From Eledone cirrhosa (taxonomy: Eukaryota), in the NCBI GenBank assembly GCA_964016885.1, contig CAXHJY010001176.1, positions 1 through 24,306 on the forward strand: a stretch of DNA of 24,306 nt, given 5' to 3'. Below are positions 14,349-21,583 of this stretch, piece after piece. The notes below the pieces were generated by a model, which worked only from the letters and a program-made list of their open reading frames with translations, made no database searches and had not been told where the DNA came from. The position numbers were made by a program, and so were the translations under genes. Numbering within the stretch: the stretch's first letter is position 1; every line of letters begins with the position of its first letter.

Positions 14349-14388
14349 CCGAGCTGAGGATCCGAATAAGGTGAAACATTTGTTCTTG
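14349..14388 (+). ncRNA. Minimal type-I hammerhead ribozyme motif
   Basis: CCGAG-CTGAGGA(14354-60)-TCCGAATAAGGT-GAAA(14373-76)-CATTTGT-T-CTTG. Stem I is CGAG/CTTG, and the inverted twin shows CTCGG, the perfect partner. Stem II is weak. Confidence 0.6.
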
Positions 14389-14563
14389 ATATGGTGAACT
14401 AACTGTTGTGAAACTACCTCTACCAAACTCGTGCTATGGACTGAGTGCTCTACTTCTACGGATATAACACTCCAGTATTCTACTAATATTTATATATATA
14501 TATATGAGAATGTTGAAGTTTGGTTGAAGCATTGTGGAATAAAAACTTTCCCCCTCGGAAAAC

Positions 14564-14809: not shown

Positions 14810-14976
14810 ATTAAAATAACAGATTAACGTTTAAGGGTGAAAGCAGTGATTCTTTGCTTAAACTTTAATCTGTTATTTTAATAAATATTTGCTCTAGGGT
14901 TCTTATATATTTGATATATATTTATCCTTATCGAGCCCTCTTTGGATTTTAGTCTTCAAATTTATTATTATTACTA
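14810..14976 (+). repeat. Unclassified dispersed repeat, copy 2, with short 5' fold-back
   Basis: Matches 5035-5180; ATTAAAATAACAGATTAA is the reverse complement of the internal TTAATCTGTTATTTTAAT. Confidence 0.85.
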
Positions 14977-15334
14977 TATATATATATATACATATATACT
15001 TAGTTTTTCCTGTATACATGAATTGTAGAGGTATAAACCTTTATTTACATCAGGTGGGTCATCTCCGGGAACTGTAAATCTCATTGAGAGGGTTCGTTTC
15101 ATTGCTCGTCAGTTTATTTTTTGAATCTCTTGAAAATATGGTTCACCTGGAATCTTGACTAAATTTATACCTTGAGGGGACTGGGTCAGTTCAGGTTTGT
15201 TGGGTCCCTCATCGGACCCAGTTCTAGTTTAGTGAGTCCCTCATCGGAGGGCCCGGGTATTCGTCATCACCGCCCTTACTCCCGATCAATCCGGCCCTGT
15301 CTGAAATCTTGCTAAGTTGCTTCTTACATCTTAA

Positions 15335-15759: not shown

Positions 15760-16180
15760 ATGGTGGCTGCCAACTCGTTTTCGAGTACGGCCACTACTTT
15801 ATATCCATGTAGGAGAACCCCTACCGATGCGCTGAACGAGTGTGACTTTTTAGTCCAGCCAGCGACTTGAAAACTCTGGTACAAACACTACACCTGTGAC
15901 AATTATTGACACATAGTGCTGGGCCCATGGTACCATGTGAGGACAAGTGCAGAGAGATCTCCAGATATAAAGCAATGCTTGTGCCGTGAAGCTTTTATAG
16001 TGAGCAAAGGCACTGCACAAAGCCAGTCCCACTCTCTTAACCAAGATGATATTTACCAAAAAGAAGAACAAGTCAACATCATTAGATACCATCAGAGTTG
16101 CAGGTGTTATATCAGAGTTTTCCTTCTCCTAGAATTCTGCCTTGACAAAGGCTAAGAGGTCATCTCTCCCAATATTTATA
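15760..16180. mobile_element. Old retroposon fragment (possibly RTE-related), copy 1
   Basis: Homologous to 16301-16610 (ATG.TGGCTGCC; AGCCA.TCCCACTCTCT; AAGAAGAA..TCAACATCAT; GAGTT..CCTTCTCCTAGAA..GACAA.GGCTAAG). The RTE link is from memory of the motif only. Confidence 0.55.
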
Positions 16181-16300
16181 TATACGTGTATATATATATA
16201 CTCTGGTACAAACACTACACTTGTGACAATTATTGACACATAGTGCTGGGCCCATATATACATATATACAAATATACATACTTACGTACGTACATACATA

Positions 16301-16610: not shown

Positions 16611-16670
16611 CCCGCGATCGGATGTCCAGCCGATTATTTCTACATACATACATAGTTACATACATACATA

Positions 16671-16914
16671 CATGCATACATATGTACATACTTACATAAT
16701 AGATATGTACGTACACACATGCATACATATGTACATACTTACATAATAGATATGTACGTACACACATGCATACATATGTACATACTTACATAATAGATAT
16801 GTACGTACACACATGCATACATATGTACATACTTACATAATAGATATGTACGTACACACATGCATACATATGTACATACTTACATAATAGATATGTACGT
16901 ACACACATGCATAC
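16671..16914. repeat. 47-bp minisatellite, 5.2 identical copies
   Basis: Unit CATGCATACATATGTACATACTTACATAATAGATATGTACGTACACA at 16671, 16718, 16765, 16812, 16859 and a partial copy at 16906. Confidence 0.95.
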
Positions 16915-18435: not shown

Positions 18436-18624
18436 GTTGGTTTGTCTATTTCTTCTATTCAATTGCAGCACATTTGATTCTGGTAAACTATCCCAGTTGT
18501 ATCGATTTTAAAGCACTAAAACAACGTATCTCCTGCGGTCGATTGATTAGAGGGGACTGTCCTATGATTTGTCCGTTTTTCCCTTCTCTTCACCCACCTT
18601 TTTTTTATTCATTATATATATATA

Positions 18625-18814
18625 AGGGCGGTGGATTGGCAGTATCGGTAGAGGGTCGGACGCCATGCTTTCCAGCATAGTTACGTCCCTTTACGATCTG
18701 AGTTCAACTCCCGCCGAGGTTGACTTTGCCTTTCATCCTTACGGGGTCGATAAAATAAAGTACCAGTAATGCACTGGGTAATTGCTGGCCTTGTGCCTAA
18801 AGTAGAAACAATTA
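18625..18814 (+). mobile_element. tRNA-derived octopus SINE
   Basis: A-box-like TGGCAGTATCGG, B box GAGTTCAACTC at 18700, core GCCGAGGTTGACTTTGCCTTTCATCC..GGGGTCGATAAAATAAAGTACCAGT; ends in (TA)n. Confidence 0.85.
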
Positions 18815-18923
18815 TATATATATATATAAGGAACGATCGACTTTCGTCAAATCGGACCGAGGGAACAATGTTTCCGTTGGTCTTTCCAATTGCTAAACTA
18901 TCTATCGGTCGCAACTCCAGGTA

Positions 18924-19001
18924 GGAGCAACGTGAAATAAAGTGTCTTGCTCAAGGACATAACGCATCGCCTGGTCCAGGAATCGAACTCACAACCTTAC
19001 G

Positions 19002-19194: not shown

Positions 19195-19304
19195 AATATG
19201 AGAGAGAGAGATATTAAATTTTATTTTTACACTCTACTAATGTATTGAGTACCTTAATAACTGTGGTTACCTCCAGATTGAACCCCCACACACACACATA
19301 TATA

Positions 19305-19344
<40 letters not shown>

Positions 19345-19347
<3 letters not shown>

Positions 19348-19511
19348 CGAAGGTGTTGTGGTAAGGAACCAGAGTACTCAATACTTAGGATAGACGGCAG
19401 AAGGAAAAAGTATGATTCCGACGGCAGAGCTCAAGCCGTTCCGACGGCTATTTCTAGAAATAGCCGTCAAAACGGCTTGAGCTCTGCCGCTGGGGTCATA
19501 CTTTTTCTTAT
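19345..19511 (-). mobile_element. (TA)n-anchored element, copy C, with fold-back centred at TTTCT|AGAAA (19455/19456)
   Basis: Reverse complement of 21399-21532 with an internal deletion between ACCA repeats; ~52-bp imperfect palindromic arms spanning 19404-19507. Confidence 0.85.
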
Positions 19512-19513
19512 AT

Positions 19514-21182
19514 ATAACCTGGACATTATTTTCCCAATTTGTAGAAAACTTTTAATGAAACGATCGTTTGGAAAGAGAGATGTATTTTAATTATGTCTCA
19601 TATAAAATAATACAACTGGCTATCCGCAAAATACGTATAGTTAGCACCCCAAACGTATAATTGGGATTATACTAAGGTATATCCTAATGTTTGTTGAGTG
19701 AGACGGAAGCCGGTCGGAGTATTGCTTAAAGCTTTCTCTGTTAATGTATTAAATATTAAACTCTTGATTTGGCCAGGGATGAATATTTCCAGATACATTT
19801 TAGGTATGACTTTCCGTATTTATTCTTTGTATGAAATATTGATTTCCTTCCGGTATCTTATCTCTGTTTTTAGCCTAAGAAAATACCTATATGCGTGTAT
19901 AAATAATACATGCATATATTTATTTTTTTATATCCAATTGAGTTCTTCACGCATGGTTTAAATTATTGAAAGAATTGATTGACCCGCGTGCATATTATTT
20001 TATGTATTTCGATGACCTCCCCTTTCCGCTTTTTGGCAGTGTGAGATCTCGCATTGTGAGACTGCTGGAATTTCAAATTTGGCGGTCATTCTAGCACGGA
20101 GGAGTACCATCGCTGAATATTAATATCGGTAAGAATTTTTTTTATAACGATATTTGTCGGACATCCACTAATAATTTATAAGTGGGTACCTACATATATT
20201 CCTATGGACTATGTGTAGGCTTCTACATAACCTGGACATTATTTTCCCAATTTGTAGAAAACTTATAATGAAACTATCGTTTGGAAAGAGAGATGTATTT
20301 TAATTATGTCTCATATAAAATAATACAACTGGCTATCCGCAAAATACGTATAGTTAGCACCCCAAACGTATAATTGGGATTATACTAAGGTATATCCTAA
20401 TGTTTGTTGAGTGAGACGGAAGCCGGTCGGAGTATTGCTTAAAGCTTTCTCTGTTAATGTATTAAATATTAAACTCTTGATTTGGCCAGGGATGAATATT
20501 TCCAGATACATTTTAGGTATGACTTTCCGTATTTATTCTTTGTATGAAATATTGATTTCCTTCCGGTATCTTATCTCTGTTTTTAGCCTAAGAAAATACC
20601 TATATGCGTGTATAAATAATACATGCATATATTTATTTTTTTATATCCAATTGAGTTCTTCACGCATGGTTTAAATTATTGAAAGAATTGATTGACCCGC
20701 GTGCATATTATTTTATGTTTATCGATGACCTCCCCTTTCCGCTTTATGGCAGTGTGAGATCTCGCATTGTGAGACTGCTGGAATTTCAAATTTGGCGGTC
20801 ATTCTAGCACGGAGGAGTACCATCGCTGAATATTAATATCGGTAAGGTTATTTTTTTTATCGATATTTGTCGGGCATTCACTGATAATTTATAAGTGGGT
20901 ACCTACATATATTCCTATGGACTATGTGTAGGCTTCTACATAACCTGGACACTATTTTCCTAATTTGTAGAAAACCTATAATGATACGATCGTTTGGAAA
21001 GAGAGATGTATTTTAATTATGTCTCATATAAAATAATACAACTGGCTATCCGCAAAATACGTATAGTTAGCATCCCAAATGTATAATTGGGATTATACTA
21101 AGGTATATCCTAATGTTTGTTGAGTGAGACGGAAGCCGGTCGGAGTATTGTTTAAAGCTTTCTCTGTTAATGTATTAAATAT
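19514..21182. repeat. 713-bp tandem repeat, about 2.3 near-identical copies
   Basis: TAACCTGGAC starts at 19515, 20228 and 20941; identical 87-aa ORFs at 19698 and 20411 confirm the period; the third copy is truncated into (TA)n. Confidence 0.97.
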
Positions 21183-21398
21183 ATATATATATATATTTAT
21201 AGATAGATATAGATATATATTATTTATATATATTATATAGATATATATTATATATATCCTTTATATATTATATATATACTATATACATTATATATATTAT
21301 ATAGATATTATATATATACTATATACATTATATATATTATATATATATTATATATATATCCTATATATTTTTTATATACATATTTTATATATATATAT

Positions 21399-21532
21399 CC
21401 AGAAATAACCGTCGAAACGCCTTGAGCTCTGCCGTCGGGATCATACTTTTTCTTATTTTACACTCTACTATCCTAAGTATTGAGCACTCTGGTGCGTTAT
21501 GGTCCAGTTGGTTCCTTACCACAACACCTTCG
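21399..21532 (+). mobile_element. (TA)n-anchored element, copy D (apparently full length)
   Basis: CCAGAAATAACCGTCGAAACGCCTTGAGCTCTGCCGTCGGGATCATAC...GGTTCCTTACCACAACACCTTCG followed by (TA)n(GA)n. Confidence 0.85.
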
Positions 21533-21534
21533 AG

Positions 21535-21583
<49 letters not shown>

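Follow-up and report, generated by a model that had tools for sequence, protein, structure and literature searches.

The composite structure studied here, about 2.2 kb long and lying entirely within (TA)n in a 24,306-nt stretch of Eledone cirrhosa DNA (the window), raises the question of what kind of element it represents, and of whether the related sequences at its ends carried the tandem array between them. The first-pass annotation described inverted 135-bp termini enclosing an array of 713-bp units, and proposed a candidate undescribed non-autonomous element or nascent satellite carried by ends resembling terminal inverted repeats (TIRs). The reading favoured here, with a probability of roughly 0.75, is that the unit is a decayed non-LTR retrozyme copied in trans by a Hydra-type Penelope-like element (PLE), and that the arms flanking the array are pseudo-LTR remnants of a second family.

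The window consists of AT-rich, microsatellite-dense, non-coding DNA, and the order of components within the composite was found again as previously described. A left (TA)n microsatellite, the putative target (19298-19347), is followed by terminus C, which comprises an inverted 3' end of the terminus family with its tail (C-left, 19348-19455, minus strand) and a direct, tail-less, 5'-truncated copy (C-right, 19456-19511, plus strand). Next come the retrozyme-like array (19514-21182, plus strand), consisting of 2.34 copies of 713 bp with the left copy truncated inside helix II of its hammerhead; a scrambled TA tract of 216 bp (21183-21398), in which sequence comparison reveals an internal 39-bp duplicate; terminus D, a direct, 5'-truncated copy of 134 bp (21399-21532, plus strand); and a right microsatellite of (TA)n then (GA)n (21535-21582). 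TA-type junctions are present at both ends of the array, as had been reported, and the fold-back in C (19404-19507) has a predicted DNA fold of -53.6 kcal/mol (z = -13.4). No target-site duplication can be read in the left (TA)n (19298-19347), the flanks being microsatellite. The inverted relationship of the termini holds, but not their size, as D is 134 bp and its inverted partner in C only 108 bp; similarly, C and D are indeed related, but three arms rather than two termini can be counted, C-left being inverted and C-right and D direct. Nor are they simply a local pair, because further pieces of the family lie in the window at 1833-2011 (partly palindromic, with the tail and an undamaged hammerhead 3' half), 2092-2132 (an inverted tail) and at 19219-19255.

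The 713-bp tandem repeat is genuine and is one member of a dispersed family. Four public sequencing runs (X1, X4, X6 and X8), bearing two species labels, were compared with positions 19348-20230 only, a span that took in terminus C and one unit; X8 is reduced-representation data, the best runs share 39% of words, and the read 'majority' cited below may be that of a sister species. The head-to-tail joint from 20226 to 19514 is found in two X1 contigs, one X4 contig and ten X8 reads with seven different starts, and is absent from X6. Its presence in three of the four runs answers the earlier concern that reads might reveal a single, mis-assembled copy. As the joint also occurs at diverged loci and in X4, which bears the second species label, the suggestion of a satellite born at this locus is not supported, while the proposal that non-integer head-to-tail copies fit a circular or multimeric template is supported by the 2.34 units of what appears to be a non-autonomous mobile repeat. 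Tandem repeats of this kind at dispersed loci, evident from the joint and the diverged pieces, are typical of retrozymes, as is a GC content below 45% (33% in the unit). Again in agreement with the first-pass annotation, none of the six read-through frames of the unit has a Pfam match, and there is no transposase or reverse transcriptase (RT) remnant. The plus strand of the unit folds more stably relative to shuffled sequences (z = -5.6) than the minus strand (z = -3.3; 20 shuffles each).

Within the array, 14 of 713 positions distinguish unit 1 from unit 2, and the 246 positions of unit 3 differ from unit 2 at eight and from unit 1 at nine. These differences are unevenly spread: units 1 and 2 are identical over unit positions 53-495 (P = 2e-5 for 13 uniform changes, or 1e-3 once clustered changes are merged), which is indicative of later conversion or polishing. 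The right end of the array is also shared with other loci. Among the best 18 of 5708 pieces, four (X1 pieces 2, 3 and 4 and X4 piece 15) leave the unit at 19750-19756 for sequence that does not resemble it, and X1 piece 5 reads through. The stop site at 19756 is unit position 246, equivalent to the local array end at 21182; this exact coincidence implies that position 246 is a family-wide end. Depth drops about 17-fold at 19750-19756. In X1, the summed contig depth is approximately 1e6 in the arms, between 2e4 and 1.4e5 across unit positions 18-257, and in the remaining unit mostly 1-6e3, with two local peaks; these values rank the parts without measuring copy number. The leftward fall from a fixed end, although noisy, resembles that of a 3'-anchored, 5'-truncated retroposon, and a partial tandem with a fixed 3' end and 5' truncation, as indicated by the pieces and the noisy depth, is the form expected of a Penelope-dependent element. 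A solo-LTR reading of the 246-bp part was rejected on the grounds that depth over it is not flat.

The statement that the unit has no hammerhead core is contradicted by a degenerate type I hammerhead that spans the very junction at which the unit had originally been delimited. This motif (hammerhead 1, 20164-20285, plus strand), identified with a pattern descriptor and the read majority, has a helix I of 4 bp, a core half at 20168-20174 that is two changes from CUGANGA, a helix II of U.U plus 7 bp enclosing two hairpins, with 95 nt between the core halves, GAAA at 20270-20273, and a helix III of 2 bp plus a tetraloop, with cleavage predicted after 20281. Helices I to III all pair at this first junction. 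At the second junction, which does not match the descriptor, hammerhead 2 (20877-20998, plus strand) has one change in each core half, while the first, truncated copy retains a 3' half (19549-19572, plus strand) with GAAA, a palindromic helix III and predicted cleavage after 19568. Shuffled versions of junction 1 matched with two or fewer core mismatches in 3 of 500 cases and with one or fewer in 0 of 500, figures that are post hoc, since the descriptor was composed after the motif was noticed. Independent of the descriptor is the read support for the canonical core: G is found at position 20170 in 165/166 and 29/29 X8 reads, at 20173 in 162/166 and 28/29 X8 reads, and at both in all X1 and X4 contig depth among the best 40 of 216 variant rows.

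Hammerheads 1 and 2 have in common a change at the G8 position, which is needed for hammerhead activity (PMC11167929), and hence both local ribozymes are predicted to be dead. At the level of the family there is a type I hammerhead motif per unit, as in retrozymes; the two consecutive complete hammerheads by which Li et al. recognise an active locus are not present here, both cores being changed. These changes also account for the failure of a strict hammerhead scan to pick up the unit. Rfam likewise returned no hammerhead from the unit, only sub-threshold hairpin matches, and with the native letters the hammerhead fold (-27.9 kcal/mol) is less stable than the best fold (-32.2 kcal/mol), with helix I and II pair probabilities near 0. 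Judged by its letters, the core style matches that of Hydra-clade PLEs and of axolotl HHR_Amex2; the basal helix II U.U occurs in 14 of 26 Hydra rows, and the cleavage-site U in 10 of 26 (PMC8557442 File S2). This Hydra-style hammerhead suggests that the unit is best read as a non-LTR retrozyme whose helix II is unusually long and branched.

The terminus family is far more abundant than the unit, and mostly occurs without it. Among the best 20 of 447 loose-end rows, 3269 of 9808 X8 reads exit the arm at 19516 into (TA)n rather than into the unit, 652 extend into tail-like sequence, and 951 and 893 exit at the hairpin centre into low-agreement AT-rich sequence; agreement in the sequence inward of the arm is 0.48-0.55. 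A further 92 X1 contigs end at C-right in (TA)n, and no contig bridging arm and unit is among the 18 of 5708 pieces listed. The array is thus unlikely to be carried by TIR-like ends as first proposed. Insertion in (TA)n, apparent from both the sequence and the read loose ends, is characteristic of Penelope-dependent elements, as is an inverted truncated 5' copy with an optional tail, which is about 75 bp here against a published 30-40.

Read in the direction of D, an arm consists of GAAA, a 5-bp helix III and GUC, then a tail with a stem motif; in D itself, a degenerate hammerhead 3' half (21414-21442) precedes a tail of about 75 bp with the stem motif at 21462-21488. Both D and C fail the 3'-half descriptor in their native letters, and with the letters of the read majority at 19441, 19469, 19490 and 19491 the arms of C regain GAAA and the GUC site. 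In the copy at 1833 the stem motif follows a hammerhead 3' half, an arrangement found in 0 of 5000 shuffles with post hoc descriptors. As window copies of the terminus family display the 3' half and no 5' half, its ribozyme reading is a likely one, and the arm can alternatively fold as a plain hairpin around GAAA. The arms are likely to be truncated 3' ends, that is, pseudo-LTR remnants, of a second Penelope-type family, rather than the ends of a DNA transposon.

C-left and D align over 108 columns with 98 matches, 10 mismatches and gaps of 19, 3 and 2, C-left having lost 19 bp and carrying a rewritten stretch at about 19394-19403; either matches the copy at 1833-2011 at about 85%. The arms differ mutually at 6-9 of 56 positions, the units by 2-3.7%. 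The first 24 nt of C-left and D are identical where the copies at 1833 and 2092 differ, and both have a T at 19416 that is carried by about 5% of reads. C-right and D have in common a minor T at 19508, C-left is without one allele that D shares with C-right, and the joint between C-left and C-right is a perfect palindrome. The possibility that C-right and D are a 58-bp target-site duplication is not favoured, given their 6/56 differences and the inner letters that D keeps and C lacks.

A strict descriptor of the stem motif found in the tail matches six places in the window, all of them TA-associated repeats. By eye, a similar stem lies about 40-47 nt after the hammerhead in three of six Hydra consensus 3' ends (Hydra-2_Amil, Hydra-2_Ajap and Hydra-1_Crog). 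Of the 28 outer-stem cells in seven chosen window copies, 27 are paired, with two of the four pairs changed on both sides; this pairing score was reached by 7 of 500 shuffles, and the relatedness of the copies inflates the support. The unit has a loose match (19619-19649, plus strand, and also 20332-20362), which is weak alone, as 100 of 2000 shuffles (5%) also match. All seven direct copies lie on the plus strand, despite the symmetry of (TA)n, which would occur with a probability of about 2% were they independent. A covarying stem common to several window families and to Hydra elements of a coral, a sea cucumber and a copepod is a candidate cis signal; no description of a downstream stem was found in the main text of PMC8557442, which contains no match for 'stem-loop' or 'hairpin'.

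Other repeats in the window have similar components. A second TA-flanked, retrozyme-like element (2133-2433, plus strand) contains a perfect hammerhead core at 2169-2282, with a helix II of 83 nt and an Rfam score of 13.9 bits (below the cut-off of 34), and the stem motif at 2337; its 5' end is fused with the inverted terminus-family tail at 2092-2132, as the array is with C. Long palindromes at 4571-4723 and 14272-14392, the latter starting like a terminus-family arm, each have a hammerhead 3' half in one arm, and possibly represent the same fold-back at helix II; such a half occurs in one arm of three of the four window palindromes, at 2-5% by chance for each, with C failing in its native letters. 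A TA-flanked segment at 1249-1612 has a degenerate hammerhead-like core near its 3' end (about 1523-1570) and no Pfam match, and ends in TATTAA before (TA)n, as is also the case at 2433 and 21182. Two copies of another TA-flanked family (5035-5178 and 14834-14977) have the stem motif with a TA-expanded loop. The window also contains SINE-like repeats at 13489-13670, 18624-18815 and 18860-19000, of which the sequence at 18624-19000 presumably resembles octopus SINEs; a near-exact duplicate (15873-15928 and 16200-16255) that gives, on the minus strand, a weak and sub-threshold match to a C2H2 zinc finger (E = 0.003); and a 47-bp minisatellite of 5.8 copies (16641-16914).

With its overlooked hammerhead, the unit is likely to be a passenger RNA that encodes no protein and that Penelope-type enzymes copied into TA microsatellites. 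The template would be plus-strand multimeric or circular retrozyme RNA. A Hydra-type Penelope-like reverse transcriptase/endonuclease would nick (TA)n, begin reverse transcription at unit position 246, a fixed internal site, run on through 2.3 units and join at TA microhomology. For the terminus family, two start sites would yield ends with and without the tail, copying would often stall in helix II, and second-strand priming would generate the inverted copy. These steps have precedents: Hydra elements, one of them listed from Octopus, insert in (TA)n, and PLE insertions are known to favour (TA)n, to form partial tandems and to carry an inverted truncated copy at the 5' end, with or without a tail (PMC8557442), while in a lizard PLE two internal RT start sites define the tail, both target strands are extended and uncut RNA is inserted (PMC11167929). 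PLEs make up 6.83% of the O. vulgaris assembly (PMC13282606). The assembly favoured for the composite, at about even odds, is a single event in which a read-through RNA consisting of arm, array, TA tract, and arm plus tail would have been copied from the end of D, with an inverted copy closing the left side; it would have remained uncut because both ribozyme cores were already dead. Favouring one event are the rare alleles common to C-left and D, the minor allele common to C-right and D, the exact palindrome of C and the dead ribozymes.

The alternative that the same two Penelope-dependent families piled up at a (TA)n hot spot and never moved as a unit, either through separate insertions or through invasion of an older C-left/D inverted pair by the array, is nearly as likely, given the density of the family in the window and the lack, among the listed reads, of any that connects an arm with the unit. 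The arms usually end in (TA)n without the unit, three further terminus-family pieces lie within the same 24 kb, and the arms differ from one another by more than the units do, including the 10 of 108 columns separating C-left from D; moreover, microsatellites are known to drive the stacking of unrelated elements in plants (PMC5907723). A pile-up does not, however, readily account for the 24 identical nucleotides and the 5% T of C-left and D, the minor T shared by C-right and D, or the exactness of the C palindrome. If the array was instead made locally, by DNA-level duplication or unequal exchange of a 1.3-mer and not by multimeric reverse transcription, the identical tract between units 1 and 2 would follow directly, as would their many common differences from the read majority, the G8 change among them. 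This is considered fairly unlikely: the 11 differences between units 1 and 2 within positions 496-660 would not result from one recent duplication, the joint is present at other loci, and the tract can be explained by conversion after insertion or by polishing.

The model implied by the first-pass annotation, a non-autonomous, TA-targeting TIR DNA transposon with an internal tandem array, similar to Tetris, pearl (a TIR DNA transposon with an internal array) or SaTar, appears less probable still. The inverted ends are about 91% alike and TA-flanked, a short motif is repeated inside the arm, and TA-targeting MULEs and foldback elements with internal repeats do exist (PMC5907723; PMC4079207). 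Yet such a transposon would have the same fixed terminus at either end, joined to its interior, and the reads do not reveal this; there are two alternative outer ends, with low-agreement AT-rich sequence inward of the arm, the arms are mostly unlinked to the unit and hold a polar hammerhead half with Hydra-type motifs, and the unit has a hammerhead and a fixed end of its own. An assembly artefact arising from a single copy can be given very little weight, for despite the long identical tract, and the lack of a piece spanning the locus among those listed, three copies are distinguishable and the joint recurs in X1, X4 and X8. Two other classes were rejected by eye. Helitrons have a 5' TC and a 3' CTRR with a subterminal GC hairpin, which were not found at the array ends on either strand, and TRIM or LTR elements have TG...CA repeats, a primer site and a polypurine tract, which were also not found.

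With a decayed retrozyme as the preferred identity of the unit, the unit and the terminus family are likely to share a helper enzyme, predicted to be a Hydra-type PLE acting in trans. An open reading frame with RT and C-terminal GIY-YIG was not found in the six frames of the unit by Pfam, so that the unit is at most a dependent of the Hydra clade and not an autonomous member. In 36 frames from six other stretches of the window there was no RT, GIY-YIG or transposase, four having weak sub-threshold Pfam matches, and no tRNA was found. None of five motifs from the unit and termini directly matches the Hydra or Naiad consensus files in the PMC8557442 supplement, a 12-nt match by eye between the unit junction and the Hydra-1_Obim 5' region is within chance, and exact-pattern scans of metagenome contigs, viral contigs and prokaryote genomes yielded no match. 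A broader, speculative and on balance unlikely proposal is that the genome holds a guild of Hydra-dependent passenger RNAs, whose hammerheads would be hidden from standard searches behind branched helices II of 80-95 nt, whose conserved downstream stem would serve the telomerase-related Penelope RT as its signal for recognition or for starting, and in which the ends of one family would move the dead multimer of another as cargo.

Thus an apparently new composite DNA element becomes one of a known, RNA-based kind, and the reason for its having been missed is evident. The term 'undescribed' does not apply to that kind, as non-LTR retrozymes and PLE insertion structures are already known; the present element departs from them in the 713-nt length of its monomer, in a helix II that is both long and branched and, possibly, in its arrangement as cargo. 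No octopus retrozyme was found in the mainly open literature searched, PMC7229834 mentions neither octopus nor cephalopod, and both families may already be catalogued in Repbase or Dfam. If a long helix II is general, surveys with short-helix descriptors undercount retrozymes in this lineage, as the hammerhead at 2169-2282 exemplifies. PLE mobilisation is poorly understood, and the downstream stem is directly testable. Caution is also warranted elsewhere: in TA-rich invertebrate genomes, a hairpin or an apparent TIR can consist of PLE ends in inverted orientation.

The closest known relatives in organisation are the animal non-LTR retrozymes, which are likewise non-coding, low in GC and arranged head-to-tail in short multimers, with one type I hammerhead per unit and a PLE proposed as helper (PMC7229834; 10.64898/2026.07.22.740005). 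Axolotl HHR_Amex2 has the same 2-bp helix III with a tetraloop and the same basal helix II U.U (PMC7229834). The 713-nt monomer compares with about 170-400 nt in invertebrate retrozymes and up to 972 nt in vertebrate consensus sequences. Unlike these, the array described here has a 95-nt branched helix II, both of its local cores are broken and the ends of another family flank it; self-cleavage and accumulation as circular RNA, which mark retrozymes, would be expected of copies with intact cores. Hydra-clade PLEs (PMC8557442; Hydra-1_Obim, Hydra-2_Amil, Penelope-13_HM) also insert in (TA)n with a hammerhead of the same core style near the 3' end, a downstream stem motif (three of six consensus 3' ends, by eye) and an inverted truncated 5' copy. 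They differ in having a short helix II and in encoding RT and GIY-YIG, neither of which is encoded here, clade assignment depending on a protein; the 3' end of Hydra-1_Obim has no direct sequence match to the unit or the termini.

The arrangement as a whole is paralleled by the Pen3a-flanked NRPS insertion of Adineta vaga (PMC3846280), in which unrelated cargo is likewise bracketed by pseudo-LTRs, two of them direct and one inverted, and the inverted junction is palindromic. The cargo here, by contrast, is another non-autonomous retroelement, no target-site duplication can be read, and the locus is a candidate case of co-mobilisation. SaTar MULEs (PMC5907723) and Tetris (PMC4079207) similarly consist of TA-flanked modules stacked end to end, with inverted ends near tandem repeats. 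These are DNA transposons with fixed, paired TIRs, whereas the ends of the composite in E. cirrhosa are polar and variable, and bear likely remnants of ribozymes.
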